Shown: one piece after another, positions 3,157 to 31,596 of the stretch
Numbering within the stretch: the first letter of the stretch is position 1
Layout: the number at the start of each line of letters is the position of its first letter
Assembly (NCBI RefSeq): GCF_003010495.1
Contig: NZ_CP027570.1
Location: 1,590,001-1,622,000, forward strand
DNA: 32,000 nt
Direction of reading: 5' to 3'
From: Megasphaera elsdenii DSM 20460
Lineage (GTDB): Bacteria > Bacillota > Negativicutes > Veillonellales > Megasphaeraceae
Translations under genes and position numbers: made by a program
The notes under the pieces: model-generated
What the model saw: only the letters and a program-made list of their open reading frames with translations
Told to the model about the DNA's origin: nothing
Databases searched by the model: none

Positions 3157-3170
3157 TTTTTCTATTTCCC

Positions 3171-3199
3171 TTGCCAAAAAGAGAAAAGTAGGTTATAAT
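3171..3199 (+). promoter_or_regulatory. Sigma-70-type promoter of tRNA-Val copy 1 (TTGCCA-17-TATAAT)
   Basis: Hexamers with a 17-nt spacer, about 30 nt upstream of the tRNA. An almost identical copy sits at 3925-3953. Confidence 0.7.
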
Positions 3200-3229
3200 A
3201 AACGAGTCGCACAGAGAAGTATAAAATAT

Positions 3230-3306
3230 GGGCGGTTAGCTCAGTTGGTTAGAGTATCTCGTTGACATCGAGGGGGTCGATGGTTCGAATCCATTATCGC
3301 CCACCA
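3230..3306 (+). tRNA. tRNA-Val (anticodon GAC), CCA encoded
   Basis: Cloverleaf folded by hand: 7-bp acceptor stem, D arm gctc/gagt, anticodon loop ttGACat, T loop ttcgaat, and a 3' acca. Confidence 0.9.
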
Positions 3307-3315
3307 TATTGTGTG

Positions 3316-3351
3316 AAAAAAGAGGCTGTCGCATTAAGACAGCCTCTTTTT
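3316..3351 (+). terminator. Intrinsic terminator of tRNA-Val copy 1
   Basis: A-run, stem agaggctgtc/gacagcctct, T-run. Confidence 0.8.
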
Positions 3352-3472
3352 GAGTTTTAAGTTTGTAGTTTTTAGTTTGCAGCAAATGGTAAAAAATTAA
3401 AGCCAGCTTCTACAAAATATAAAGCAACCTCTCAGACCGCCTGAGGCGGCCAGCTCCCCTAAAAAGGGAGCC
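3352..3472. repeat. Mosaic repeat: gttttaa/gtttgta/gttttta/gtttgca heptads, AT hairpin, AC-rich arm, then double-hairpin element (3421-3472)
   Basis: Read directly. The double-hairpin element recurs at 6078, 7749, 31740 and 31806. Confidence 0.7.
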
Positions 3473-3847: not shown

Positions 3848-3924
3848 AACAATCCCTCCTTACCTTTATTATACTGGTTAGAGTGGAGTTCAAGTCAAGC
3901 TGTGAAAAATGTTGAAAAAAGCCC

Positions 3925-3953
3925 TTGCCAAAATGTGAAAAGTAGGTTATAAT
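3925..3953 (+). promoter_or_regulatory. Sigma-70-type promoter of tRNA-Val copy 2 (TTGCCA-17-TATAAT)
   Basis: Near-identical duplicate of 3171-3199. Confidence 0.7.
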
Positions 3954-3983
3954 AAACAAGTCGCACAGAGAAGTACGAAATAT

Positions 3984-4060
3984 GGGCGGTTAGCTCAGTT
4001 GGTTAGAGTATCTCGTTGACATCGAGGGGGTCGATGGTTCGAATCCATTACCGCCCACCA
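3984..4060 (+). tRNA. tRNA-Val (anticodon GAC), second copy
   Basis: Identical to 3230-3306 except for one acceptor-stem base (c4051 versus t3297), which changes G-U to G-C. Confidence 0.9.
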
Positions 4061-4071
4061 TATTGTGTGCG

Positions 4072-4107
4072 AAAAAGGACTTGTCGCTATGCGGCAAGTC
4101 CTTTTTT
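4072..4107 (+). terminator. Intrinsic terminator of tRNA-Val copy 2 and insertion site of the group II intron
   Basis: A5, stem ggacttgtcgc/gcggcaagtcc, T6. The intron GTGCG starts 2 nt later. Confidence 0.8.
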
Positions 4108-4109
4108 AG

Positions 4110-6007
4110 GTGCGCCCGGCATGGGCGCACTCTAATGGGTGAAAGTCCCTAAGCCGCCCGGTAGCGGGAAGGCTATAGCCAGAACCAAGGGTGTCCATCG
4201 TGAGATGGAATCTGAAGGAAGGTCGAGGCAAATCTCTGGTCTGACGAACAGAAATCACATAAGGCTAGTCATGGGGATAAGGCCGCCTAACAGGTTGAAG
4301 TCCCATAGCTACACGGAACCATGAATAGTAGATGTGGCAGACACATGGAGAGAAAGAGTGCGTTCTTACCCGGGGAGGCCTCATGGACATGATGGTGCCA
4401 TATAGATTGGACATCATGGTTGAAATAAGATTTATCATGAGGAGTCAGCCGAGGCCATAGTACCTTATGGGCTATAGACCATGAGGAAAGGGCCGAATCC
4501 TAGGAGATGTTAGTTAATGAAAGTAACCAATCATGGAATGAAAGACAGAAAACTTCATCAAGAAGGCTGTCCACAAAAAGAGGTTGCGGAACAACCGGGA
4601 TATGTGGAAGCGTCTGCCCATGCGAGGATTGCTGAACACAACGACATCATTGCAAGCTTGCCAGCGGACAGTCTGTTGAAGCAGATTTTATCACGAGACA
4701 ACTTAAATGGTGCCTATAAGAAGGTAAAGTCTAATCGAGGAACCGGCGGGGTCGACAGGATGAGTGTAGATGAACTTCTACCCTACCTGCGGGAACATCG
4801 CCTGGACCTCCTTCAGCAAATACGGAATGGGAAATATAAGCCCCAGCCAGTCCGTCGGGTTGAAATACCCAAAGAGGAAAAAGGGAAATTCCGGAAATTA
4901 GGAATCCCTACGGTCGTAGACCGCATGATACAACAGGCGATTACGCAGGTTCTTGTGCCTATCTACGAGCCACAGTTTTCAGATAGCAGTTTCGGGTTCC
5001 GTCCCAAACGGGGCGCCCACGATGCGTTGAAACAATGCCAGGCCTATGCAGATGAGGGCTATGTCTACGTCGTAGACATGGACTTGGAGAAATTTTTCGA
5101 CAATGTCTGCCAAAGCAAATTGATAGAAGTTCTGTCAAGGAGCGTAAAAGACGGCCGGGTCATCTCGCTGATACACCAATATCTCCATGCTGGTGTTATC
5201 CGGCATGGGATGTTCGAACGAAGTGAACAGGGGGTTCCCCAAGGAGGGCCATTGAGTCCGCTCTTGAGTAACATCATGCTGAATGAGCTGGATAAGGAGC
5301 TGGAACGGCGCGGACATAAATTTGTCCGCTATGCAGATGACTGCATGATACTCTGCAAAAGCAGAAGAAGTGCCGAAAGGACCTTGGAAAGCATCACTCG
5401 ATATATTGAGAAGAAATTATTTCTCAAGGTGAATCGAAATAAGACGCACGTAGCCCACATCCGCTATGTTAAATATCTGGGATATGGCTTCTACCGAAAG
5501 AATGGAAAATGCCGACTCCGGGTGCATCCGAAATCCATTACTAAGATGAAAGACCGTTTGCGGTTTATATTGAAACGAAGCAATGGAAAAGGAAACGAAG
5601 TGAGAGCCCTTCTATTGAAACGATTCATAAAGGGATGGGTGAATTACTTTAAACTAGCGAATATGAAGGAACTGCTAATTCAAATTGACAGATGGATTCG
5701 ACGCAAAATACGAACCATATACTGGAAACAATGGAAGAAGGTACGGACGAAACACCGGATGATAAGCCAATACGGCGCGCCCAAGTGGGTAGTGTTGGAA
5801 ATGGCTAACTGCCGAAAAGGTCCGTGGCGAGCAGCGGCAATGCTGAACTCAGTTCTTACGAATAAAGAAATAGCCCGCCTTGGCTACATAACCATGACGA
5901 GCTATTACAAGCAAGTATGCGAAAACTAGGAAACCGCCGTGTACCGAACGGTACGCACGGTGGTGTGAGAGGTCGGGATTTCTACTCAGAAATCCCTCCT
6001 ACTCGAT
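4110..6007 (+). mobile_element. Group II intron, probably bacterial class C (IIC), with an intron-encoded RT/maturase
   Basis: 5' GTGCG at 4110. Domain V-like helix at about 5934-5965 with a 2-nt 3' bulge and CGC at the triad position. Domain VI helix with a bulged A at about 6001. Size is about 1.9 kb, the IEP has no En domain, and the insertion is right after an intrinsic terminator. The 3' boundary is good to about +/-5 nt. Confidence 0.85.
4517..5929 (+). CDS. ltrA: Group II intron reverse transcriptase/maturase (no endonuclease domain)
   Basis: 470 aa. RT blocks are present, including GVPQGGPLSPLLSN and the catalytic YADD (RYADDCMILC). The maturase X region is rich in W/K/R. There is no C-terminal HNH. 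Confidence 0.93.
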   Translation: MKVTNHGMKDRKLHQEGCPQKEVAEQPGYVEASAHARIAEHNDIIASLPADSLLKQILSRDNLNGAYKKVKSNRGTGGVDRMSVDELLPYLREHRLDLLQQIRNGKYKPQPVRRVEIPKEEKGKFRKLGIPTVVDRMIQQAITQVLVPIYEPQFSDSSFGFRPKRGAHDALKQCQAYADEGYVYVVDMDLEKFFDNVCQSKLIEVLSRSVKDGRVISLIHQYLHAGVIRHGMFERSEQGVPQGGPLSPLLSNIMLNELDKELERRGHKFVRYADDCMILCKSRRSAERTLESITRYIEKKLFLKVNRNKTHVAHIRYVKYLGYGFYRKNGKCRLRVHPKSITKMKDRLRFILKRSNGKGNEVRALLLKRFIKGWVNYFKLANMKELLIQIDRWIRRKIRTIYWKQWKKVRTKHRMISQYGAPKWVVLEMANCRKGPWRAAAMLNSVLTNKEIARLGYITMTSYYKQVCEN

Positions 6008-6175
6008 CAGTCAGCGGCTAGCAGTTAGCGAATGGTTTTAAATTTGACGCCATCCACTAAAAACTACAAATGCTGAGAAAGCAACCTCTCAGACCGCCTT
6101 TGGCGGCCAGCTCTCCTATGAGGAGAGCCTTTCGTCAAACATCAAGTCTCAAGCCTCAAGCATCAAAGACAAAGA
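6008..6175. repeat. Mosaic repeat: cagtcag/cggctag/cagttag heptads, AT hairpin, AC-rich arm, double-hairpin element (6078-6129), tcaag-type heptads (6139-6175)
   Basis: Same module order as 3352-3472, that is, the 3' flank of the other tRNA-Val copy. Confidence 0.7.
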
Positions 6176-6222
6176 AAACATGAGAGATAACAAAAAGCTT
6201 TACAAGAGTTTTCTTTTTTTTA

Positions 6223-6251
6223 TTGAAAATTTATGGATTTTGCTTTATAAT
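6223..6251 (+). promoter_or_regulatory. Sigma-70-type promoter upstream of sstT (TTGAAA-17-TATAAT)
   Basis: Hexamers and spacing read directly. It shares the tataataaacaagt context with the tRNA promoters. Confidence 0.6.
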
Positions 6252-6323
6252 AAACAAGTGTATTCATGTATTATACATTTGTAACATGGAATCATTGATA
6301 TTTTAGGGTAGGAGGTTTTCTTT

Positions 6324-7568
6324 ATGCATAGTTTATGGAATGCATTGAACCGCATCAGCCTGATTAAGCAGATCCTCGTCGGCTTGATCATCGGTATCGT
6401 CGTGGCCATGGCTTTCCCGGCAGCTGGGAAGGAATTGGCTTTGCTCGGCGTCATTTTCGTCGGTGCCTTGAAGGGCATCGCCCCGGTCTTGGTCTTCGTC
6501 CTGGTCTCCGCTGCCTTGAGCCGCAAACAGGAAGATCACGAATCGAACATCAAAGATGTCATCATCCTGTATCTTATCGGTACCTTTTTAGCGGCTTTCT
6601 TCGCCGTCATGATCAGTTTCGTCTTCCCGCTGACGCTGCAGCTCGACGTATCGGCTGCCAGCAATAAGGCGCCTGAAGGCATTGCCGAAGTCTTGACGAC
6701 GCTCCTCAAGAACATCGTCGATAACCCGGTCCACGCTCTGATGACGGGCAACTACATCGGGATCCTCGGCTGGGCCTGCCTGTTCGGCGTCGCCGTCCGC
6801 CGCGTTTCCGAATCGTCGAAAGCCGTCCTCGATGACTGTGCCGACGCCGTTACGACTTGTGTCCAGTGGATCATCCGCCTGGCTCCGCTCGGCATCATGG
6901 GCCTCGTCGCTGACTCCGTTTCGTCCAATGGTATCGGTGCCCTCATCGGCTATGCTAAATTGCTCTGCCTCTTGTTAGGGACGATGCTGCTCTTTGCCTT
7001 CGTCGTCAACCCGATCATCGTCTATGCCAAGATCCACCGCAATCCCTATCCGCTGGTCTGGAAATGCATCAAGACGTCTGGGGTCACGGCCTTCTTTACG
7101 CGCAGCTCGGCTGCTAACATCCCGGTCAACCTGTCCTTGGCCAAAGAAATCGGTGTCAATCCCGATACGTATACCGTTACGATTCCCCTCGGGGCCACGA
7201 TTAACATGTCCGGCGCAGCTATCACCATTTCTATCATGACCTTGGCCGCTGTCCATACCTTAGGGATTGCCGTCGACTTCCCGACAGCCCTCCTGCTCAG
7301 CGTTCTCTCGGCCATCGGTGCCTGCGGGGCTTCCGGCGTTGCCGGCGGCTCTCTGCTGCTGATCCCCATGGCCTGCAGCCTCTTCGGCATCTCCAATGAT
7401 ATTGCCATGCAGGTTGTCGGCGTCGGCTTCATCATCGGCGTTTTACAGGACTCGACGGAAACGGCCCTCAACTCGTCGACAGATATCCTCTTCACAGCCG
7501 CTGCCGACTTCGCCCAGCGCGGTTATCCCGAACACCTGGGCGGCCACGAAGTAAGCCATCAAGGGTAG
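6324..7568 (+). CDS. sstT: Serine/threonine:sodium symporter SstT (DAACS family)
   Basis: 414 aa. The N-terminus ([17 protein letters not shown]...[21 protein letters not shown]) closely parallels E. coli SstT. RBS aggagg is present. Confidence 0.88.
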
Positions 7569-7663
7569 GAACGCCCATGTAGGGGAGGCCCATGTAGGGG
7601 ACGCCCAGAGGGCGTCCCGCCGTCCGCCGTTCGCATGTAGGGGCGCCACGTGGGGCGCCCGCC
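7565..7663 (+). repeat. Cluster of REP-like units: two half units (7565, 7579) and two full GTAGGGG-hairpin-CCCGCC units (7594-7621, 7637-7663)
   Basis: Each unit is GTAG followed by a GC palindrome (gggacgcc/ggcgtccc and gggcgcc/ggcgccc). The first GTAG contains the sstT stop codon. Confidence 0.75.
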
Positions 7664-7748: not shown

Positions 7749-7832
7749 AAAAGCAACCTCTCAGACCGCCTTCGGCGGCCAGCTCCCCTATAAGGGGAGC
7801 CGCTAGCCACGAGCCACGAACCACGAGCCACT
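7749..7832 (+). repeat. Double-hairpin element (7749-7801) followed by a cacgagc/cacgaac heptad array (7802-7832)
   Basis: aaaagcaacctctc + ccgcc-ttc-ggcgg + gctcccc-tataa-ggggagc, followed by the 7-nt units. Confidence 0.75.
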
Positions 7833-7866
7833 AAAAAAGCGTTGTCCGTCAGGACAACGCTTTTTT
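7833..7866. terminator. Bidirectional intrinsic terminator (A6, gcgttgtcc/ggacaacgc, T6)
   Basis: Symmetric A-run and T-run around a 9-bp stem. It lies 7 nt from the stop of the minus-strand gene at 7873. Confidence 0.8.
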
Positions 7867-9484: not shown

Positions 9485-9561
9485 AGCGTTCCTCCTATTT
9501 TTGAATATACGTTATTATAAGGGATGGAGTCAACTCTAAGTCAAGAGAAAAAAAGAAAAAC

Positions 9562-9590
9562 TTGACAAGGCCCTTTCTTCGATATAAGAT
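9562..9590 (+). promoter_or_regulatory. Promoter of the trpS T-box leader (TTGACA-17-TAAGAT)
   Basis: Consensus -35, a 17-nt spacer and an acceptable -10. Confidence 0.55.
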
Positions 9591-9599
9591 AGATGCATC

Positions 9600-9890
9600 C
9601 AAAGTGATAGAGAACGTCGATGAACGGGAGCAAGTACCGTCACGATACCCTTGACAGCGAGCCGGTGGCAGTGGAAGTCCGGTGAAGAGGCCGTGAATGG
9701 GAATGGGCCCGGGAGATGCAGGCTGAAGCTGAGTAGGTCCTGCCGGAACTTTCACCGTTATCAGGAAAGAATGCATCTACGTGTGCATATGAGCCGGGCA
9801 GTTTTGCCAACCAGGGTGGTACCGCGGAAATGACTTTCCTTTCGTCCCTAATGTGAGGGATGGAAGGATTTTTTTATTGAACAGGGAGGA
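9600..9890 (+). promoter_or_regulatory. T-box riboswitch leader with Trp (UGG) specifier, controlling trpS
   Basis: Stem I elements are present (agagaa GA motif, AGTA box, gccggtggcagtggaa distal region). GAA-TGG-G lies in the specifier region (9695-9700). The T-box sequence aaccagggtggtaccgcgg is at 9812-9830. A terminator (tccttcc../..ggaagga followed by T7) is at about 9838-9880. Confidence 0.88.
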
Positions 9891-9897
9891 ATCCATC

Positions 9898-10884
9898 ATG
9901 TCTGTTATTTTTTCTGGTATCCAGCCGAGCGGCAATCTGACTTTAGGTAACTATTTAGGCGCACTTCGCAATTTCTCGAAAATCCAGGACGGCAACGAAT
10001 GTTATTACTGCGTCGTCAACCAGCATGCCATCACGGTCCCGCAGGACCCGGCCCTCTTACATCAGCGCACGCGGCAGCTGGCTGCCATCTACCTGGCTTC
10101 CGGCCTGGATCCGGAAAAATCGACGCTCTTCGTCCAGTCAGAAGTCCCGGAACACGCACTCCTGGGCTGGATGATGATTACCTTGTCCTATGTCGGTGAA
10201 TTGGAACGCATGACCCAGTACAAGGATAAGGCTTCCAAACGGGGCGACTCCATCCCGGCCGGCCTGTTGACCTATCCGCCCCTCATGGCTGCGGACATCC
10301 TCTTGTACCAGACCAACTTCGTCCCCGTCGGCGATGACCAGAAGCAGCACATGGAAATCACCCGCAACCTGGCTCAGCGCTTCAACCGCCTCTATGGCGA
10401 AGTCTTCACCATCCCCGATATCTACCTCGGCCAGGACGGCACGCGCGTCATGAGCCTCCAGGAACCGACCAAGAAGATGAGCAAGTCCGACGACAACACG
10501 ACGGCAACGATTTATCTCCTCGACGAACCGAAGGCTATCGAAAAGAAAATCAAACGGGCCCAGACGGACAGCGAAAACTCCGTTCATTACGATAAAGAAA
10601 ACAAGCCGGGCATTTCCAACCTCATCGAAATCTTCTCGGCCCTGACAGACCAGACGCACGAACAGGTCGAAGCGGCCTATGCCGGCAAAGGCTATGGCGC
10701 CTTCAAGAAAGACGTGGCCGACGCTGTCATCTCGACGCTGGAACCGATCCAGCAGCGTTACCGCCAGCTCGTCGACGATCCCGAACTGGACGCTATCCTT
10801 GACAAAGGCGCTGCCAAAGCCCATGCCAAGGCCAGCGTGACTTACGAAAAAGCCGCCAAGGCCATGGGCTTGTTCCGCAAGTAA
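9898..10884 (+). CDS. trpS: Tryptophan--tRNA ligase
   Basis: Start is placed at ATG 9898, which has RBS agggagga. The track start at 9853 lies inside the T-box terminator. Motifs include the class I signature GIQPSGNLTLGNYLG and KMSKS. Confidence 0.93.
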   Translation: MSVIFSGIQPSGNLTLGNYLGALRNFSKIQDGNECYYCVVNQHAITVPQDPALLHQRTRQLAAIYLASGLDPEKSTLFVQSEVPEHALLGWMMITLSYVGELERMTQYKDKASKRGDSIPAGLLTYPPLMAADILLYQTNFVPVGDDQKQHMEITRNLAQRFNRLYGEVFTIPDIYLGQDGTRVMSLQEPTKKMSKSDDNTTATIYLLDEPKAIEKKIKRAQTDSENSVHYDKENKPGISNLIEIFSALTDQTHEQVEAAYAGKGYGAFKKDVADAVISTLEPIQQRYRQLVDDPELDAILDKGAAKAHAKASVTYEKAAKAMGLFRK

Positions 10885-11008
10885 AACGATTACTCTTAAA
10901 TTTGAAAGTCGATAAGATTTGAAATTTATAAAAATAAAAGCAAATAACATATTGACAAAGAAAGTATAAAGTATTACACTATATCCAACAAAGAAAATAG
11001 TAGAGACA

Positions 11009-11060
11009 AGAGGCAAGGGAGCCTGATGGAACATCAGCTTTCCTTGCCTCTGTTTTTATT
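11009..11060 (+). terminator. Strong intrinsic terminator between trpS and the aminotransferase gene
   Basis: 20-bp stem agaggcaagggagcctgatg/catcagctttccttgcctct (two G-U pairs, one mismatch), loop gaa, then gtttttattt. Confidence 0.75.
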
Positions 11061-11130
11061 TGGGGATTTCTTTGTTCGATCTTTTAGTTATCATTTCTTT
11101 ATAAATTCATCAGTTTAGGGGGAGTTACGA

Positions 11131-12351
11131 ATGAGATTACGCGATGTAGGATTGACCAAAGAAGAAATCAAAGCCAAAGTAGACAAGTACATGATTGAAA
11201 CGTACGAACGCTTCGACATGATCGCCGAACGCGGCAAAGGCATGTACGTCTACGATGAAAACGGGACACCGTACCTTGATTTCTACGCTGGTATCGCCGT
11301 CAACAGCGCCGGCAGCTGCAACGACAAAGTCGTCCTGGCCGTCATCGACCAGTGCATGGACATCATGCAGACCTTCAACTATCCGTACACAGTACCGCAG
11401 GCCCTGCTGGCTGAAAAGATTTGCACGACCATCGGCATGGACAAGATCTTCTTCCAGAACTCCGGGGCAGAAGCCAACGAAGCCATGATCAAGATGGCCC
11501 GTAAATACGGCGTTGAACACTTTGGTCCCAACAAATACGAAATCATCACGGCAAAAGAATCCTTCCACGGCCGTACCTTTGGTTCCATGAGCGCTACGGG
11601 CCAGCCGGACAATGCCTGCCAGATCGGTTTCGGTGCCATGACGCCGGGCTTCAAATATGCTGAATTCAACAATTTGAAAGCCTTTGAAGATGCCATCACG
11701 GAAAACACCATCGGTATCATGGTCGAACCGGTACAGGGCGAAGGCGGTGTCCATCCGGCAACGAAAGAATTCCTCACGGGCCTGCGCAAACTGTGCGATG
11801 AAAAAGGCCTGCTCCTCCTCCTCGATGAAGTACAGAGCGGCTGGTGCCGCACCGGGGCTGTCATGTCCTACATGAACTACGGCATCAAACCGGATATCGT
11901 CTCTATGGCCAAAGCCCTGGGCGGCGGCATGCCAATCGCTGCTATCTGCGCCCGCGAAGATGTTTCCAAAGCCTTCACTATGGGTTCCCACGGCAGTACC
12001 TTCGGCGGCCATCCGGTCTGCTGCGCCGCAGCCTTGGCCGAAGTCAACGAACTGTTGGACAAAGACCTGGCTGGCAATGCCAAGAAGATGGGGGCATACT
12101 TCTTGGAACAGGCCCGGGAAAAACTGCCGCATCTGAAGGAAGCCCGCGGCCAGGGCTGCTTCTTGGGGCTTGAATTTGACGACAAGATCAACAGCGTCGA
12201 CTTGAAGCATAAATGCTTCGACAAACACATGCTGTCGACGGCTATCGGCGACCACGTCCTGCGCCTGGTTCCGCCGCTGATCCTCCAGAAGGAACACGTC
12301 GACAAGGCCATTGCCATCATCAAGGAATCGGTCGAAGAATTGGCAAAATAA
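11131..12351 (+). CDS. Class-III (ornithine/acetylornithine/GABA-type) PLP aminotransferase
   Basis: 406 aa. Motifs are FFQNSGAEANEAMIKMARKYG, LLLLDEVQSGWCRTG and the PLP lysine in SMAKALGGGMPI. RBS gggggag is present. Substrate specificity cannot be determined from the sequence. Confidence 0.88.
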   Translation: MRLRDVGLTKEEIKAKVDKYMIETYERFDMIAERGKGMYVYDENGTPYLDFYAGIAVNSAGSCNDKVVLAVIDQCMDIMQTFNYPYTVPQALLAEKICTTIGMDKIFFQNSGAEANEAMIKMARKYGVEHFGPNKYEIITAKESFHGRTFGSMSATGQPDNACQIGFGAMTPGFKYAEFNNLKAFEDAITENTIGIMVEPVQGEGGVHPATKEFLTGLRKLCDEKGLLLLLDEVQSGWCRTGAVMSYMNYGIKPDIVSMAKALGGGMPIAAICAREDVSKAFTMGSHGSTFGGHPVCCAAALAEVNELLDKDLAGNAKKMGAYFLEQAREKLPHLKEARGQGCFLGLEFDDKINSVDLKHKCFDKHMLSTAIGDHVLRLVPPLILQKEHVDKAIAIIKESVEELAK

Positions 12352-21597: not shown

Positions 21598-21625
21598 GTA
21601 GGGGCCGTCTCAACGGGCGGCCCGC
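21598..21625 (+). repeat. REP-like unit GTAGGGGCCGTC-tcaacg-GGCGGCCCGC
   Basis: Same arms as the units at 25259, 29274 and 29468, with a different loop. Confidence 0.7.
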
Positions 21626-21700
21626 TCCAGAATATGTGTGATTTCCCAGACCGGACTACAGGGGCATCGTCCCCATATCCGGCAGCATCAGCCACCCGAC

Positions 21701-21749
21701 GCTAACCACGAACCACGAACCACGAGCCACGAACCACTAGCCACTAGCC
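21701..21749 (-). repeat. Heptad array (ccacgaa/ccacgag/ccactag units as read on the plus strand)
   Basis: Seven consecutive 7-nt units read directly. Confidence 0.75.
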
Positions 21750-21807
21750 CCCCATTTGTGGTAAAGTAGAGCCATGCGAAATATCATTGCAGAGGGGAGC
21801 TAGGAGA

Positions 21808-23958: not shown

Positions 23959-25167
23959 ATGGTACGGAACAAAATCATTGCCTTTCTGGCAGCCGCTGCC
24001 CTCTTGTCAGTCAGTGCCGTTTCGGCCGATGCCCCTTATACGGACCTGGACAGCCTGACCGACCGCGCTGCCGTCGATTATCTCTATGACGCACAGTGCC
24101 TGACCTTCATTACAGGGACTTCCTTCGAACCGGACCGGGTCCTGACCCGCGGCGACCTGGCCCAGCTGCTCTATAATTCGGCAGCCAACATCCCCCTGGC
24201 ACCCCTCGGCGCTGCCAGCTATGGTGATGTGCCGTCCGGAACGGCGGGTGACGCCATGAACAGCGTCGCTGCCCAAGGCATCCTGGCCGGTTATGAAGAC
24301 GGGAATTTCCATCCCGAAGCGCCTGTGAGCCGCGAAGAGTTCGCCGGCGTCCTGTATCGCTACTTGCAGTACAATCACCTGGCCGACCCGGATCAGGATG
24401 TCAAGCCCTACGCCGATGCCGCGTCCATCGCTCCGGCCTATGCCAAAGCCATCGACGTCCTGCACAGCAAGAACATTATGGTGCCGGCAGACAATTATTT
24501 CCGGCCCAAAGAAGGCATGACCCGGGCCGATGCGGCTCAGGTATTTTACCGGCTCATGCATTCCGATGGCGATTATACGTCCCATGTCCAGGTCGAATCG
24601 CAGGTCATCAAGGCCATCAATGCCGAATACGGCTCGGTGCCGATTTACTTCCGCAGCGGTACGATGTACTGGGATGGCGATACCCTTGTCCTGGGCATCA
24701 AGGGCGCTCCCAGCAAGTACTTGAAACAGCGCCTCCGCGATGATGTGGCTAAAACGTCGGCCGTCCAGATCCGCCGCGCCGCCTTGAGCCACAGCGATTA
24801 CAGCCAGCTCATGACTAAGGCCATCCACTGCGTCGTCGACAACGAAGGCGTCCAGAACTACGTCGGCGCCCTGCCGGACTATGTCCATGAACAGATCGTC
24901 CTCACCGTCCGCCATCCCGTCAGCAAGGCCACCCTGGCCGAACTGGCCAAACGCGTCGGTACGGGACGGGTCCGCCTGGAAACGGCTCCCATTGCCGGTC
25001 AGGCTCCCATCGTCCAGGTAGCCGGACAGATGGAAGAAACAGCCGGTACGGATACGACGGCAACGACAGAAAATTCCAAAAAAGAAGTAAAGCAAGTCTA
25101 CTCGACCTTACTGGACGATGCCACGACCAGTGCCATCACCTCCGTCCAGAACGACGTGATGAAGTAG
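23959..25167 (+). CDS. Secreted SLH-domain protein, paralog of 22909..23937
   Basis: It has a signal peptide, three SLH repeats, and a C-terminal region alignable with the upstream paralog (YGSV...MYW.GD.L..G.K...DY..LM...PDY..E..VLTV). The Thr-rich tail is unique to this copy. Confidence 0.85.
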   Translation: MVRNKIIAFLAAAALLSVSAVSADAPYTDLDSLTDRAAVDYLYDAQCLTFITGTSFEPDRVLTRGDLAQLLYNSAANIPLAPLGAASYGDVPSGTAGDAMNSVAAQGILAGYEDGNFHPEAPVSREEFAGVLYRYLQYNHLADPDQDVKPYADAASIAPAYAKAIDVLHSKNIMVPADNYFRPKEGMTRADAAQVFYRLMHSDGDYTSHVQVESQVIKAINAEYGSVPIYFRSGTMYWDGDTLVLGIKGAPSKYLKQRLRDDVAKTSAVQIRRAALSHSDYSQLMTKAIHCVVDNEGVQNYVGALPDYVHEQIVLTVRHPVSKATLAELAKRVGTGRVRLETAPIAGQAPIVQVAGQMEETAGTDTTATTENSKKEVKQVYSTLLDDATTSAITSVQNDVMK

Positions 25168-25202
25168 TTTGGTGGCTCGTGATTCGTGGTTCGTTGTTCG
25201 TA
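25168..25202 (+). repeat. Heptad array gtggctc/gtgattc/gtggttc/gttgttc starting immediately after the stop codon
   Basis: Read directly. The stop TAG (25165-25167) sits inside GTAG. Confidence 0.75.
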
Positions 25203-25203
25203 T

Positions 25204-25240
25204 AAAAAAAGAGAACTGTCATAAGACAGTTCTCTTTTTT
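25204..25240. terminator. Bidirectional intrinsic terminator between convergent genes
   Basis: A7, stem gagaactgtc/gacagttctc, T6. Confidence 0.85.
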
Positions 25241-25258
25241 ACTAGCCCCTAGCCCCAG

Positions 25259-25340
25259 GCGGGCCGCCCTTTGGGACGGCCCCTACGAACCACGAACCAC
25301 GAGCCATGAGCCACGAGCCATGAGCCACGAGCCACGAGGC
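25259..25340 (-). repeat. REP-like unit (25259-25286, minus orientation) plus a heptad array (25287-25340) abutting the stop of the HAD gene
   Basis: The reverse complement reads gtggctc/atggctc heptads, then GTAGGGGCCGTC-ccaaag-GGCGGCCCGC. Confidence 0.75.
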
Positions 25341-25341
25341 C

Positions 25342-25992
25342 TCACACTCCGAAGAGAGCCCCCAGTTCTTCCCGCGTGTCGATGAGGTACGTCGGCTGGA
25401 GGGATTTCAGGAAGTCCCGGTCGCGGAAGCCCCAGGTGACGAGGGCGGCGTCGAGGCCGGCGTTGTCGGCGGTCTGTTTATCGACTTCCGAGTCGCCGAC
25501 GTAGATGGCGTCTTCTTTGGCACAGCCCAGGCGTTTCAGGGCTTCCCAGACCATGTCCGGCGCCGGCTTTTTGCGGTACATCGGCGTTTCGCCCAGAGAG
25601 AAGTCGACGAAATCCTTGAAGTATTCGTCGTGCAGTTCGGAGACGGCGCCCTGGCCCTTATTGGAGACGATGGCCATGTGGTAGCCGGCTGCCTTCAGCC
25701 GTCCCAGGACCTGGGGGATGCCGGGGTAGGGGAAGGTCGTCGTCTGGCAACGGGCGCTGTAATAGGCGATAAATTCCTTTGTCATCGTCCGCCGCAGGGC
25801 TTCCGGCGCCTGCGGAGCGGCCTTGTCGATGAAGCCGTCATAGCCAAAGCCCAGGCAGGGCCGGATGGCCTTTTGCGTCATAGAAGGCAGGCCATGGCGG
25901 GCGAAAACGTAGTTCAGGCTTTTCGTCAATTCGTCCAGCGTATCCAGGACAGTACCGTCCATATCGAAGACGATGGCTTTATATTTTTCCAT
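25342..25992 (-). CDS. HAD-superfamily hydrolase (phosphoglycolate phosphatase/PpaX-like)
   Basis: Start is placed at ATG 25992 (MEKYKAIVFDMDGTVLDT, motif I DxDGT) with RBS aaaggag. Motifs II (SNK) and IV (GDSEVD) are present. Confidence 0.88.
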   Translation of the reverse strand: MEKYKAIVFDMDGTVLDTLDELTKSLNYVFARHGLPSMTQKAIRPCLGFGYDGFIDKAAPQAPEALRRTMTKEFIAYYSARCQTTTFPYPGIPQVLGRLKAAGYHMAIVSNKGQGAVSELHDEYFKDFVDFSLGETPMYRKKPAPDMVWEALKRLGCAKEDAIYVGDSEVDKQTADNAGLDAALVTWGFRDRDFLKSLQPTYLIDTREELGALFGV

Positions 25993-26137
25993 GAAAAAGA
26001 CTCCTTTGATGGACAAAAAAACAATTTACTCCATTATTATACGAAAGCGTCAATTAATCGGCAATAGGTAGTAGCTCATGACGTCATCTTATGCTACAAT
26101 GGGGAAAGAAGTTTGATAAAATAGAGGAGAGGATGAC

Positions 26138-28401: not shown

Positions 28402-29277
28402 GTGAAGAAAATCCGTAAAGCCGTCATCCCGGCGGCCGGGTTCGGCACCCGTTTCCTGCCGGCGACGAAGGCGACGCCGAAAGAAATGCTGCCTATCGTC
28501 GATAAGCCGACAATCCAGTATATCGTCGAAGAAGCCCTGCAGAGCGGCATCGAAGAAATCCTCATCATCAGCGGCCATGCCAAACGGGCCATTGAAGACC
28601 ACTTCGATACCAATCCGGGCCTGGAACTGCACCTGGAAGAAAGCCATAAGATGGGGCTTTTGAACATGGTCCGCAGTATTTCCGAAATCAATATCCACTA
28701 TATCCGTCAGAAACACATGCGGGGCTTAGGCGATGCTATCCTTTGCGCCCAGTCCTTCATTGCTGACGAACCCTTCGCTATCCTTCTCGGCGACGACGTC
28801 GTCTACAACGAAACCAATCCGGCCCTGCGCCAGATGATCGATTTGTACAACGACCTCGACGCGACCATCCTGGGCTGCCAGGAAGTCCCCTTGGAAAAAG
28901 TATCGTCTTACGGCATCGTCCAGGGGACGCCTGTCGAAGGGCAGGGCATCCTCAAGGTCAACCGCGTCGTCGAAAAGCCGGCCATCGAAGAAGCGCCGAG
29001 CCGGACCGCCGTCCTCGGCCGTTATATCGTCACGCCGGACATCTTTGAAGTCCTGTCCCATACCCGGCCGGGCAAAGGCGGGGAAATCCAGCTCACCGAT
29101 GCCTTGCAGACCATGGCCAGCCGGGAAGCGGTCTATGCCTACTGCTTTGAAGGCAAGCGCTACGACGTCGGCGATAAACTGGGCTTTTTGAAAGCCAACG
29201 TAGAATACGCCCTGCGCCGGCCCGACCTGGCCGCCCCGTTCCGCCAGTTCCTGAAGGAAGTCGTTCGTGGTTCGTAG
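28402..29277 (+). CDS. galU: UTP--glucose-1-phosphate uridylyltransferase
   Basis: GTG start with RBS aaggag. Motifs are AVIPAAGFGTRFLPATKATPKEMLP and VEKP. The last codons (VVRGS-stop) are made of heptad and REP sequence. Confidence 0.92.
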   Translation: MKKIRKAVIPAAGFGTRFLPATKATPKEMLPIVDKPTIQYIVEEALQSGIEEILIISGHAKRAIEDHFDTNPGLELHLEESHKMGLLNMVRSISEINIHYIRQKHMRGLGDAILCAQSFIADEPFAILLGDDVVYNETNPALRQMIDLYNDLDATILGCQEVPLEKVSSYGIVQGTPVEGQGILKVNRVVEKPAIEEAPSRTAVLGRYIVTPDIFEVLSHTRPGKGGEIQLTDALQTMASREAVYAYCFEGKRYDVGDKLGFLKANVEYALRRPDLAAPFRQFLKEVVRGS

Positions 29278-29585
29278 GGGCCGTCCTGGAAGGCGGCCCG
29301 CGTGAATCCTGTGTAAAACGTTATAGCTTGTAGTGGGTGGCTCGTGGTTTGTGGCTTGTGTTCGTGGCTCGTGCTCGTGGCTCGTGTTCGTGGCTCGTGG
29401 TTCGTGGCTCGTGTTCGTGGCTCGTGGCTCGTGGTTCGTGGTTCGTGGCTCGTGTGGCTCGCGGCTCGTAGGGGCCGTCCTGGAAGGCGGCCCGCGTGAA
29501 TCCTGTGTAAAACGTTATAGCTTGTAGTGGGTGGCTAAAAATTTAAAGCCATCCGCTAGCCACTAGCCACTAACTGCTAACCACT
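29261..29585 (+). repeat. Composite: heptads, 69-bp unit (REP-like hairpin plus spacer, 29274-29342), 125-bp array of 6/7-nt cgtggct/cgtggtt/cgtgtt/cgtgct units (29343-29467), identical 69-bp unit (29468-29536), AT hairpin, ctagcca/ctaactg heptads
   Basis: The two 69-bp copies are identical base for base by my alignment. Array units were parsed by hand. Confidence 0.85.
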
Positions 29586-29637
29586 AAAAAAGGGGCTGTC
29601 GCACGAAGGTTTTTGCCATCATGCGAGGGCCCTTTTT
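29586..29637 (+). terminator. Chimeric terminator-like element (left half ggggctgtcgca, right half atcatgcgagggccc, T-run)
   Basis: The left arm matches the 15642 terminator and the right arm matches the 7706 terminator. Pairing between the two halves is only partial. Confidence 0.45.
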
Positions 29638-29644
29638 CTTAAAT

Positions 29645-29737
29645 GTTTGAGGTTTGATGTATGACGTTTGAGGCGATGGCTTTTAAATTTTGTCCCCTCC
29701 ACATCAAACTTTCAACTTCAAACTTCAAACTCAAAAA
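29645..29737. repeat. Mosaic repeat: gtttgag/gtttgat/gtatgac heptads, AT hairpin centre (gatggcttttaaatttt), catcaaa/cttcaaa heptads
   Basis: Inverted GT-rich and AC-rich arms read directly. Confidence 0.75.
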
Positions 29738-29769
29738 GGGCTTGTCGTCATGCGACAAGCCCTTTTTTT
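29733..29769. terminator. Bidirectional-type intrinsic terminator (A5, gggcttgtcg/cgacaagccc, T7)
   Basis: Perfect 10-bp stem with flanking A-run and T-run. Confidence 0.8.
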
Positions 29770-29799
29770 ACGACGACTATAAACTGCACGAAAATAGTA

Positions 29800-29828
29800 T
29801 TGATTGAATGAAAAGGCCATGCTATAAT
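29800..29828 (+). promoter_or_regulatory. Promoter of the rseC-like gene (TTGATT-17-TGcTATAAT)
   Basis: -35 hexamer, 17-nt spacer and an extended -10. Confidence 0.6.
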
Positions 29829-29851
29829 AGGCTCAGAAAGAAGGGATTCCT

Positions 29852-30274
29852 ATGAAAATTGAAGAAGGTACAATTATTTCTATAAAAGAACAAGGCACGG
29901 CCGAAATCAAGGTCGGCCGCCATTCTGACTGCATCGCCTGCGGTGCCTGCGAAGGGGCTGAAAACATCGTTGTTACCGCTGTCGACCCGTTGGGCGTCAA
30001 AGTCGGCCAGCACGTCAAATTTGAATTTCGCGATGTCAACATCGTCATCGGCGCTTTCATCTGTTTCGTCATGCCGCTCCTGGTCTGCGCAGCCGGTGCC
30101 TTTGCCGGCCACTTCCTGGCCCTGGCCCAGGGCTTCGATACGGTCCAGACTGCTGTTATCGGCGGCATCATCGGCTTTCTCATCGGCGCCGTCGGCGTCA
30201 AACTCTTCGACCGCTCCCTGTCGAAAGATATAAATTCCAAGCCGAAGATCATCGAAATCTGTTCGGGGAATTAA
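29852..30274 (+). CDS. RseC/MucC-family (SoxR-reducing system) membrane protein
   Basis: 140 aa. An N-terminal Cys cluster CIACGAC is followed by two TM helices, which is the typical RseC layout. Confidence 0.8.
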   Translation: MKIEEGTIISIKEQGTAEIKVGRHSDCIACGACEGAENIVVTAVDPLGVKVGQHVKFEFRDVNIVIGAFICFVMPLLVCAAGAFAGHFLALAQGFDTVQTAVIGGIIGFLIGAVGVKLFDRSLSKDINSKPKIIEICSGN

Positions 30275-30403: not shown

Positions 30404-31318
30404 TTAGATTCCCAGACGCATATTATGTTTCTGGAAATCAGCATACAGCTTTTCATAGTCATCCGGTGACATGTAGTTGCAATGGCTATGAATGCGTACG
30501 GTGTTGTAAAAGGTATTGATGTATTCAAACACCAACAAGTACGCTTGCTGATAATTTTGAATCTTGAAGCGATTGAGCCATTCCCGTTTAATCAGGGAGT
30601 GGAAGGATTCGATGCAGGCATTGTCCCATGGATAGCCTTTCTTCGAATAGCTGCGGCGCATTTGGGATGTCTCCCGAATATATGCCTGCGAAACATACTG
30701 GCAGCCACGGTCCGAATGGATAACCAACAGCTGTCCGGGTTTCCGGCATTGTTTGGCTTCCTGCAGCATCTTGACGATGCCGGCGACGTCCAGATTACGG
30801 GCCAGATTCCAGGCGATGATTTTCCTGGAGAACAAATCCATAATGCTTTCCAAATAGACGAAACCTTCAGCTGTCCAGATATAGGTGATGTCGCTGCACC
30901 ATACTTGATCCGGTTCTTCAGGATTGAAGCATTCCTGAAGGATATTCACCAGCGCCACGTCAAAGTCACTGTTACGGGTCGTTACGGTGTAATGCTTTAC
31001 CCAGCAGGCCTGAATGCCCATTTGCCGCATGTATACGCCAACTGTGCGTTCAGAGATACTGTCCCCGTTCTGCTGCATAACTTGGGCAATCTTCGGGGCT
31101 CCGTAAATCTGCTTGGAATCGTCGTAGATAGTTTGAATCTTTTTCTTCATCTCCTTGCGGTGCTGGGCCTGTTTCGATGGTTTGCGCGCCGCCCAGTCAT
31201 AATATCCTGAAGAAGAAACGTCGAGTTCAGAAAGCACTCCGGACACCGAAAAACGACGTTCTGCCTGATGGGCATTTTCGGCTTCTTCCTGGACACTGCG
31301 ATAGATGGCAATGGTCAT
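30404..31318 (-). CDS. IS3-family transposase OrfB (DDE integrase core), probably expressed as an OrfAB fusion
   Basis: The DDE triad contexts are VWCSDITYI, VIHSDRGCQYVS and YPWDNACIESFH. The frame is open from the A7G site. Confidence 0.9.
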   Translation of the reverse strand: MTIAIYRSVQEEAENAHQAERRFSVSGVLSELDVSSSGYYDWAARKPSKQAQHRKEMKKKIQTIYDDSKQIYGAPKIAQVMQQNGDSISERTVGVYMRQMGIQACWVKHYTVTTRNSDFDVALVNILQECFNPEEPDQVWCSDITYIWTAEGFVYLESIMDLFSRKIIAWNLARNLDVAGIVKMLQEAKQCRKPGQLLVIHSDRGCQYVSQAYIRETSQMRRSYSKKGYPWDNACIESFHSLIKREWLNRFKIQNYQQAYLLVFEYINTFYNTVRIHSHCNYMSPDDYEKLYADFQKHNMRLGI

Positions 31319-31596
31319 TTGTCCAGAATGCTGATAGCTTTTTTTAGGACATTCAACGCATCCTTCGCATCCCGCAGTTCACGCTGCAGACGGGCGATTT
31401 CCTTAGCTTCATCCGAAGCATAGTTGCCGGAACCACGATAAGGCATTTCGCCATTGTCCTTCAGCTGCTTTTGCCAACGGGACAAGGTTTGTGGAGCAAT
31501 ACCTAGATTCGTAGCACAGCCAACCAAGCCGAGTTCCCGATGTTCATGATAATATTTAACTGCGTTGATTTTGAATTCTTTGTTGAATTTTGCCAT
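31315..31596 (-). CDS. IS3-family transposase OrfA (HTH)
   Basis: 93 aa with an HTH (GCATNLGIAPQTLSRWQKQ) and a leucine-zipper-like C-terminus. Confidence 0.9.
   Translation of the reverse strand: MAKFNKEFKINAVKYYHEHRELGLVGCATNLGIAPQTLSRWQKQLKDNGEMPYRGSGNYASDEAKEIARLQRELRDAKDALNVLKKAISILDK
31338..31346 (-). other. Programmed -1 ribosomal frameshift site (A AAA AAA G on the minus strand)
   Basis: The minus strand reads cta aaa aaa gct in the orfA frame. The -1 frame continues without a stop into orfB. Confidence 0.75.

Follow-up and report, generated by a model that had tools for sequence, protein, structure and literature searches.

The SLH-HAD spacer and its variation

The window analysed here is a stretch of 32,000 nucleotides from the chromosome of Megasphaera elsdenii DSM 20460, and the element in question is the spacer at 25168-25341, where a gene for a 402-aa SLH-domain protein (23959-25167, plus strand) converges on a gene for a HAD-family hydrolase (25342-26016, minus strand). 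The first 15.9 kb of the window match HE576794.1, the M. elsdenii DSM 20460 chromosome, at ~1.32-1.36 Mb with 99.994% identity, and locus L104, also from HE576794.1, spans 29.3-31.5 kb of the window. An exact-protein look-up of the HAD open reading frame (ORF) from its TTG start gave no match; gene callers use a 216-aa form. The left arm of the spacer (25168-25203, plus strand) begins 1-5 nt past the TAG stop of the SLH-domain gene and comprises four GT-type 7-nt units, or heptads (GTGGCTC, GTGATTC, GTGGTTC and GTTGTTC, then GT), which were called by Tandem Repeats Finder (TRF) and by a self-match scan. It is followed by a predicted bidirectional intrinsic terminator (25204-25240, both strands), composed of A7, a perfect 16-bp stem, a 4-nt loop and T6. 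The stem has a 10-bp GC-containing part, reaches 16 bp when A/T pairs are counted and is conserved in the related locus L001; the heptad arms lie outside it. Beyond the terminator are a two-unit CTAGCCC mini-array (25242-25256, plus strand; TRF) and a GC-rich, GTAG-tagged hairpin resembling repetitive extragenic palindromic (REP) elements, which reads GTAGGGGCCGTCCCAAAGGGCGGCCCGC on the minus strand (25259-25286), lies between terminator and right arm and has no counterpart in the orthologous L001 spacer. The right arm (25286-25341, plus strand; TRF) consists of eight AC-type units (CGAACCA, CGAGCCA or TGAGCCA), is of GT type when read on the minus strand and reaches the stop codon of the HAD gene. 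An earlier note on this DNA had described GT-rich and AC-rich arms facing each other across a terminator or an AT-loop hairpin; arms and terminator are as it described them, whereas it overlooked the GTAG hairpin at 25259-25286 and the wider mosaic of modules to which the arms belong.

Do the two arms form a functional stem? The whole composite folds at -96.9 kcal/mol, compared with -48.3 +/- 3.9 kcal/mol for shuffled sequences (z = -12.4), with the arms as the outer stem, and the duplex of the arms alone also lies beyond shuffles (z = -7.0). In their best register the arms are complementary at 87% of 31 nt, and registers offset by 7 nt give 77-95%. One hypothesis, close to the long-stem 3′ untranslated region (UTR) stabiliser or insulator of the earlier note, is that the arms are functional RNA, such that terminator read-through would let the GU-rich and AC-rich arms pair as a long stem that insulates the convergent genes, blocks 3′ exonucleases or recruits RNase III. 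The folding energies and the outermost position of the arms speak for this hypothesis, as do the placement of a GU-type arm upstream of the terminator in both convergent transcripts and the enrichment of arrays in convergent and tandem spacers. However, most of the z-score of 25168-25341 comes from the terminator and the REP-like hairpin, which also supply much of the fold energy, and no Rfam family matches. At the gathering threshold Rfam reported nothing in the whole window beyond two tRNA-Val genes and a group II intron, and at E<=1 only sub-threshold generic hairpin matches on 25100-25400 and 29200-29900; a known RNA family as the identity of the repeats was dropped for this reason.

Ten further contigs that encode an exactly identical SLH-domain protein and show 0-13 substitutions across ~4 kb of flanking sequence differ in spacer length: 146, 153, 153, 166, 174 (four strains), 181 and 195 nt, against 174 nt in the window. 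Among these ten strains the right arm has 3, 4, 4, 6, 8, 9 or 9 units and the CTAGCCC mini-array 2, 3 or 4. Apart from one single-nucleotide polymorphism and an A7/A6 difference, nothing changes in the left arm, which keeps its 4 units, or in the terminator and GC hairpin. The arms thus vary independently of each other and in whole units, and they therefore behave as slippage-prone minisatellites rather than as a stem held paired by selection. With the right arm ranging over 3-9 units and the left constant at 4, the view of the earlier note that the arms are independently expanded microsatellites, not palindrome copies, is borne out.

A second spacer (29278-29851), compared among strains chosen by an identical RseC-like protein, also varies in length, at 235, 251, 327, 355, 523, 561, 574, 574 and 581 nt. 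It is preceded by an NTP-transferase gene (28402-29277) whose last codons and TAG stop are themselves heptads running into a REP-like GTAG (gtcgttcgtggttcGTAGGGG, 29260-29277); the hairpin that follows (29274-29301, plus strand) is entered in phase by these GT heptads. Since L004 and L005 end this gene differently, the repeat has remodelled its 3′ end. Downstream lies the largest GT-type array (29337-29469, plus strand; TRF), absent from the list of the earlier note, in which ~19 units of GTGGCTC or GTGGTTC are mixed with 6-nt GTGTTC. A 67-nt REP segment stands in duplicate, one copy on either side of the array, which exists only where this GC-hairpin segment is tandemly duplicated and is absent or shorter in other strains. 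Two composites follow, separated by a terminator-like hairpin (29590-29632, plus strand). The first (29518-29588), present in all M. elsdenii strains examined, has a short GT arm, the palindromic core ggctaaaaatttaaagcc and an AC arm (CTAGCCA/CTAACYR). The second (29641-29738), with a GT arm of GTTTGAG, the core ggcttttaaattttgtc and an AC arm of CTTCAAA, is present in some strains and missing in others. In one strain the flanking terminators are fused into a hybrid whose junction lies within the TCATGCGA shared by both, and recombination between two related terminators explains the deletion in strain L102. Smaller steps occur in the same spacer: a 7-nt deletion inside an arm in one strain, and a +7 change. 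Two other strains, 98.9% identical, differ by 4 indels in 11.9 kb, among them a 14-nt (2-unit) array change and a 24-nt GTAG hairpin beside heptads. Unit-number variation between strains, a check proposed in the earlier note, is thus found at several loci, and independence of the arms and polymorphism in unit steps are established by these comparisons.

Between species, at 88-92% nucleotide identity, orthologous spacers carry different unit families or no arrays. The SLH-HAD spacer of L001 holds 11 units of CGTGGCT/AGTGGCT facing 4, without the GC hairpin, and that of L005 holds GCTAGTG x6. In L002 the module is of quite another kind, with an AT-loop core between a TTTGNAG arm and a CTACAAA arm, and the spacers of L004 and L006 have no heptads. 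The density of 0.1-0.5 arrays per kb in the M. elsdenii clade falls to essentially none in the sister species L004 and L006 and in nine more distant Megasphaera loci. GGGGTTA units are present in the relative L001, and the imperfect arm GTTTGTA GTACGGA GTTTGTA GTTTGTA reappears at a non-orthologous site of another species.

These data tell against the functional stem. The arms are not kept matched (4 units against 3-9 among strains, 11 against 4 in L001), the same loci have no arrays in sister species, three out of seven composites in the window fold no better than shuffles, and arms from different loci pair as well as partners do. We consider this role improbable, and the stabiliser or insulator proposed in the earlier note is not supported. 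The reading that we favour, and judge to be probable, is that the arms are hypermutable 7-nt arrays, akin to short tandemly repeated repetitive (STRR) sequences in cyanobacteria and to the GGGAATC repeats known from Xanthomonas, within mosaic intergenic elements of M. elsdenii that resemble bacterial interspersed mosaic elements (BIMEs). The heptad arrays themselves are probably neutral or selfish.

Period-7 arrays in the window and the clade

TRF calls period-7 arrays in the left part of the window at 65-93, 118-150, 3348-3378, 6142-6166, 7797-7831 and 21704-21749, and in the right part at 25172-25201, 25242-25256, 25285-25338, 29556-29587, 29645-29673 and 29704-29735, in addition to 29337-29469 with its 19 units. 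Nearly all of the heptad arrays that the earlier note had listed are thereby recovered; the arms at 2487-2515, 6008-6031, 3404-3425 and 29518-29535 are short or degenerate and were missed by TRF. The self-match scan, run over periods 4-12, gives nine arrays at period 7 and none at periods 4-6 or 8-12, an excess far beyond chance.

Is this excess confined to spacers? The census used M. elsdenii-clade sequence in which genes had been called, amounting to ~150-215 kb and 85% coding. At a threshold of three units, over ~150 kb, 38 of 39 period-7 arrays are intergenic and one is coding. The remaining periods from 4 to 12 give no intergenic arrays, and coding arrays only at periods 5 (one array), 6, 9 and 12. 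Under a stricter threshold all arrays (50/50) are intergenic although the sequence is mostly coding. Array density is 3.0/kb in convergent spacers, ~1.85/kb in tandem spacers and 0.55/kb in divergent spacers, and many arrays start 0-5 nt past a stop codon, so that the predicted enrichment near 3′ gene ends is supported in this sequence. At 25168-25341 each array follows the stop codon of one of the convergent genes, whereas a phase-variable contingency locus would have its repeat inside an ORF or a promoter spacer, where unit changes switch expression; a few arrays elsewhere do lie in divergent spacers, for example at L085 16958.

Although unit sequence changes from locus to locus while the 7-nt period is kept, as the earlier note had claimed and TRF and the unit alignment bear out, the unit families share a degenerate consensus, G-T-K-K-N-T-M, with frequencies G(0.90) T(0.92) K(0.97) K(0.87) N T(0.74) M(0.86). 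This consensus is real. The "GT start" that had been described is therefore part of a genuine shared pattern and partly a result of the phase chosen. Adjacent arrays are ordered GT->AC in six cases, AC->GT in one and AC->AC in one; with respect to genes, arrays are found in either orientation.

Three AC-type arrays on the plus strand are unpaired. That at 6133-6170 (TCAAGCC/TCAAACA) lies 3′ of a double-hairpin module at 6078-6129, that at 7795-7835 (GAGCCAC) lies between another such module (7750-7794) and a terminator (7836-7866), and that at 21697-21752 (AACCACG x7) lies ~70 nt downstream of a REP-like hairpin (21598-21625). AC arrays are 31-60 nt long, with 27-43% C and 0-25% G, so the description of the unpaired ones as C-rich and G-poor was correct. 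This composition would suit Rho utilisation (rut) sites, and an alternative hypothesis is that the AC arrays are rut sites or that the arrays in general form a lattice for a single-stranded RNA- or DNA-binding protein with a footprint of ~7 nt, for example one with a cold-shock domain. Cold-shock domains contact 6-7 nt, which would agree with the strict 7-nt period and the common consensus GTKKNTM. Csp, S1 and CsrA have been proposed as binders of heptamer repeats (PMC4679880). Against such a lattice or rut function, unit sequences differ widely among loci, copy number varies 3-fold between near-identical strains, the arrays stand in both orientations relative to genes and sister species lack them; moreover, the AC arrays are below the typical rut length of ~70-80 nt. 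We give this hypothesis very little credence. The variability argues against every one of the proposed functions, whether Rho loading, insulation or protein binding.

A preference for period 7 is not peculiar to Megasphaera. In a control set of ~1.05 Mb of non-Megasphaera loci, periods 5, 6 and 8-11 yield 0-12 arrays, and period 7, again dominant, yields 38. The period-7 arrays are mostly in rumen and gut Bacteroidales, and one inverted pair occurs at L061 13193-13296. Period 7 is the main tandem class in contigs of Bacteroidales/Prevotella metagenome-assembled genomes (L020, L021, L028, L061, L069, L070 and L073), with units such as AGTTGAG, GTTTAGA, AGTGAAG and GTAAATR and an array of more than 200 nt at L070 6327-6511. 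Several candidate motifs were set aside. A cross-phylum rule of AGT every 7 nt, suggested by published heptamers with AGT/ACT, applied to 32% of 37 Bacteroidales arrays and was dropped. UAG triplets at 7-nt spacing, as for HutP, are present in only some arrays, a Chi-like GCTNGTGG is limited to one unit family, and NusG pause motifs (TTNTTT) are limited to the T-rich family.

Composites and dispersed modules

The earlier note listed seven composites of facing arms. Besides 25168-25341 and the two in the spacer at 29278-29851, these are 62-152, with a GT arm at 62-96 (GTTTGTA), an AT-loop core at 97-116 (gggcttaaatttagagcc) and an AC arm at 117-152 (CTAnCnA); the weak composite 2485-2569, which follows a terminator (2453-2486) and has a GT arm (GTTCATC), an A-rich core and an AC arm (CGAACCA); 3347-3425, whose GT arm (TTTKNAG x5) lies directly 3′ of a tRNA-Val terminator and is followed by an AT-loop core and a degenerate AC arm; and the degenerate composite 6006-6079, which begins at the 3′ end of a group II intron and has the core tggttttaaatttgacgcca. 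Arm pairing is significant at 25168-25341, 29641-29738 (arm-duplex z = -3.8) and 29518-29588 (z = -3.2), and weakly so at 6006-6079 (z = -2.2); the arm duplexes of 62-152, 2485-2569 and 3347-3425 are not significant against shuffles. Fold z-scores for the whole composites are -1.6 (62-152), -1.2 (2485-2569), +1.1 (3347-3425), -1.8 (6006-6079), -2.6 (29518-29588) and -4.2/-3.5 (29641-29738). Folding better than shuffled sequence, which had been put forward as a check, thus holds for some composites and fails for three of the seven. Where pairing is found, it is not specific to the locus. Non-partner arms of the same unit family pair as well as or better than the true partner: the left arm of 25168 and the right arm at 2533-2569 give -39.5 kcal/mol, and the left arm of 6006 gives -28.4 kcal/mol with the right arm at 29551 compared with -11.7 kcal/mol with its own partner. 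Complementarity therefore belongs to the unit family, and locus-specific complementarity of the arms was rejected.

Together with other dispersed modules the arrays make up a larger mosaic, in which they are tightly integrated with REP-like hairpins, a palindromic core and terminators. The first module is a GTAG-tagged GC hairpin (GTAGGGGnCGnCC-loop-GGnCGnCCCGC), of which ~118 kb contain 13 well-formed copies, all intergenic. In the window these lie at 7594-7620, 7637-7662, 21598-21625, 25259-25286 (minus strand), 29274-29301 and 29468-29495, and others are found in L084, L085 and L087. Six of the 13 are directly preceded by GT-type heptads that enter the GTAG in phase. It is this hairpin module, not the heptad arms, that has the make-up of REPs and BIMEs, being a GC-rich imperfect palindrome of 20-40 nt with an unpaired GTAG, present in many extragenic copies in mosaics with heptads, terminators and AT-loop cores. 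A GTAG hairpin together with promoter-like sequence (ttgattgaatg...) is also carried by a ~105-nt segment upstream of the RseC-like gene, orthologous to ~29770-29850 of the window, which occurs in tandem three times in L001 (rc 6140-6740) and six times in L003 (rc 703-1500).

The second module is the palindromic AT-loop core, with consensus aTGGCTTTTAAATTTAAAGCCAt, which is central in 62-152, 3347-3425, 6006-6079, 29518-29588 and 29641-29738 and at other loci. A search with a fuzzy pattern and an A/T-run clamp gave only about a dozen cores, too small a number and too rich in indels for a covariance model. Variants with GGTT...AACC exist, and by their sequence the changes from GGCT/AGCC to GGTT/AACC look compensatory. 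The third is a 52-nt double hairpin (agcaacctctcagaccgcc..ggcggccagctcccct..aggggagcc) with copies 92% identical to one another at 3421-3472, 6078-6129 and 7750-7801, each followed in the window by an AC-type array, and at L088 1964-2011. The fourth comprises terminator hairpins that share a stem core of CTGTC...GACAG or CTTGTCG...CGACAAG (155-185, 2453-2486, 3320-3350, 7836-7866, 25204-25240 and 29739-29770), and which on account of these shared cores look like a dispersed sequence family. A stretch of ~190 nt, made up of composite 29641-29738 and both flanking terminators, is found a second time in this genome, at 95% identity and a distance of ~0.57 Mb; the composite's paralog lies at L084 13761-13892, and partial copies with other breakpoints exist. 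From this paralog, the partial copies and the arm that recurs in another species, it follows that modules are copied between loci without fixed ends. Turnover and dispersal of the modules are thus established.

By what route are the modules copied? A hypothesis that differs from our favoured reading only in invoking transposition in place of recombination is that the composites, arms included, are non-autonomous elements in the manner of REP doublets forming hairpins (REPINs) or miniature inverted-repeat transposable elements (MITEs), moved by a REP-associated tyrosine transposase (RAYT) that would recognise the GTAG hairpins or the AT-loop palindrome. The abundance of the GTAG hairpins and their confinement to spacers agree with it, and so do the CGTGGYT heptads running in phase into the GTAG tag and the 24-nt hairpin present in one and absent from the other of two strains of 98.9% identity. 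It would further suit the 95% identical paralog and the presence or absence among strains of composite 29641-29738, which has an 8-nt direct repeat, TCATGCGA, at its bounds, and RAYTs are considered to mobilise GTAG REPs (PMC3733652). However, neither the window nor the neighbours examined contain a gene for a RAYT (a Y1 HUH transposase), the paralogs share mosaic segments with differing breakpoints, and the 8-nt repeat lies inside two related terminator stems, where a microhomology-mediated deletion fits equally well. Nor would transposition explain the 7-nt-step changes of the arms. We regard this origin as possible and on balance doubtful. A MITE model with a target-site duplication was set aside, given that the ends are not fixed and that TCATGCGA falls within terminator stems. 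Since blastn of 29470-29800 gave no match among 72,556 plasmids and 50,697 phage records, a plasmid or phage origin was also dropped.

The group II intron that adjoins composite 6006-6079 (4072-6007; ORF 4517-5929, a reverse transcriptase/maturase, with Rfam D1-D4 matches) exists in at least nine near-identical copies, five of them in DSM 20460; those in L082-L090 lie around 9558-11491. Every copy sits directly 3′ of a terminator-like hairpin, which is the insertion habit of class C introns, and in eight of nine copies the 3′ exon opens with GT-type heptads in place of a T-tract. The copy in the window follows the terminator of the second of two tRNA-Val(GAC) genes (3160-3306 and 3915-4060), whose promoter-like upstream region is duplicated as well (~93% over 167 nt). 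In the strain of L081, 99.98% identity to the window extends up to the intron 3′ end; beyond it, at L081 11519-15211, follow genes for arsenic resistance that encode ArsR, ArsD, ArsA and a carrier of SBF-like type. Because L081 diverges from window position 6008 onward, the junction of intron and repeat is a breakpoint for strain-specific DNA.

Relation to known repeats and origin of the heptads

Heptameric simple sequence repeats are over-represented in the intergenic DNA of many bacteria, with lengths that vary between close relatives, and the only cause proposed for their excess is an effect of the polymerase footprint on slippage (PMC4692102). Examples are the intergenic heptamers GGGAATC of Xanthomonas and GGGGAYT of Nostoc, at times arranged as inverted pairs with one copy per strand (PMC4692102), and arrays of TAACTGA and other heptamers in Beggiatoaceae, cyanobacteria and Bacteroidetes, which show 7-nt-step indels between strains and for which MacGregor suggested a cold-shock-domain protein as binder of the TAACTGA repeats (PMC4679880). 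The Megasphaera arrays have the properties of STRR sequences: at least three head-to-tail units of exactly 7 nt, restriction to non-coding sequence, presence at many loci, unit numbers that differ in 7-nt steps among close strains, and patchy, lineage-specific occurrence and unit sequence. The STRRs of heterocystous cyanobacteria, with GGGGAYT in Nostoc PCC 7120, are likewise tandem, strictly intergenic, present at many loci and lineage-specific (PMC4692102). In contrast to these, the Megasphaera units are GTKKNTM, the host is a rumen and gut Negativicute, and the arrays adjoin terminators or REP-like hairpins, often as inverted arms on either side of a palindromic core. In Xanthomonas the GGGAATC repeats also vary at conserved positions and include some inverted pairs (Rehm et al. 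2015, PMC4692102); however, they are G-rich and quadruplex-forming, whereas the units in the window are GT-rich without G-runs. The TAACTGA repeats share with the Megasphaera arrays an intergenic position, 7-nt indels and mixed heptamer types per spacer (MacGregor 2015, PMC4679880), but in the BOGUAY genome most of them closely precede start codons and share a single orientation, and those of Megasphaera are mostly downstream of genes, beside hairpins.

For the hairpin module the closest parallel is provided by the REPs and BIMEs of enterobacteria and pseudomonads and by GTAG REPs, which are also high-copy, GC-rich extragenic GTAG hairpins in mosaic clusters, often reiterated (Di Nocera 2013, PMC3733652), and which, like those of Megasphaera, lie mainly between unidirectional and convergent genes (PMC3733652). 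The terms Firmicutes, Negativicutes, Veillonella and Megasphaera do not appear in the main text of that survey (PMC3733652). Classical BIMEs differ from the Megasphaera elements in being without a heptad microsatellite part, and in the Megasphaera window no RAYT was found. The BOX elements of Streptococcus pneumoniae, boxA-(boxB)n-boxC, are modular and intergenic too, with variable tandem units and a predicted stem-loop; however, the boxB unit measures ~45 nt, not 7, and there is no sequence relationship. A literature search on Megasphaera repeat elements returned no description of these repeats, and for this reason we treat them as an addition to a known kind. The kind is already known; its occurrence in Megasphaera appears to be new, and the integration with hairpins, cores and terminators is distinctive.

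How would such elements arise and persist? Arrays may originate beside hairpin modules and then expand and contract, and because the polymorphism comes in 7-nt steps, units would be gained and lost by slipped-strand mispairing in replication. The modules may spread by recombination, transposition or both. The inverted GT...AC layout would then result from arrays flanking a symmetric hairpin on both strands and not from selection for a long stem. The arrays would have no sequence-specific essential function and would persist where insertion is tolerated, mainly downstream of genes, with variable 3′ UTR length and potential extra secondary structure near terminators as likely side effects.

Several observations weigh against this account. 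Slippage itself was not seen, and the left arm of the SLH-HAD spacer, unlike the right, was invariant in the ten strains. Nine of the 11 arrays that start 0-5 nt after a stop codon are GT-sense, which hints at a bias at the transcript level. The consensus G-T-K-K-N-T-M, and likewise the strict ordering GT->AC at AT-loop cores (6 vs 1), could reflect a constraint such as a binding motif instead of common descent. No transposase or other mechanism that would account for the dispersal of the modules could be identified in the sequence. What the slippage reading chiefly leaves unaccounted for is that the units share a consensus and keep strictly to a period of 7 nt.

A further hypothesis starts from these features, namely that the heptads might be written or maintained by a dedicated enzyme (for example a RAYT-like HUH nuclease or an intron reverse transcriptase), or might equally form a lattice for a protein that binds single strands in 7-nt steps. 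It would draw on the shared consensus, the phasing with GTAG, the GT->AC polarity and the heptads at 8/9 group IIC-like intron 3′ junctions. We think it highly improbable; if true, it would be the start of an explanation for the heptamer excess in bacterial intergenic DNA, which has been noted since 2007. Whichever origin applies, M. elsdenii is a Negativicute of gut and rumen that can be cultured, and its density of arrays per kb extrapolates to an estimated several hundred. Sister species at ~90% nucleotide identity without arrays at the same positions offer a natural comparison for a genetic determinant, candidates being a polymerase or repair variant, a RAYT or an intron. With strain-level polymorphism and array-free sister species, the 7-nt preference could be studied in M. 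elsdenii. The arrays are, in addition, ready-made variable-number tandem repeat markers for typing M. elsdenii strains and a likely source of assembly breaks and variable 3′ UTRs.

The gene content beyond the spacer at 29278-29851 also differs among strains. In DSM 20460 an IS3-family element (30404-31596, minus strand; orfA 31315-31596, orfB 30404-31318) lies downstream of the RseC-like gene. The element is missing in L103, L105, L106 and L109, where a 341-aa gene stands directly next to the RseC-like gene.

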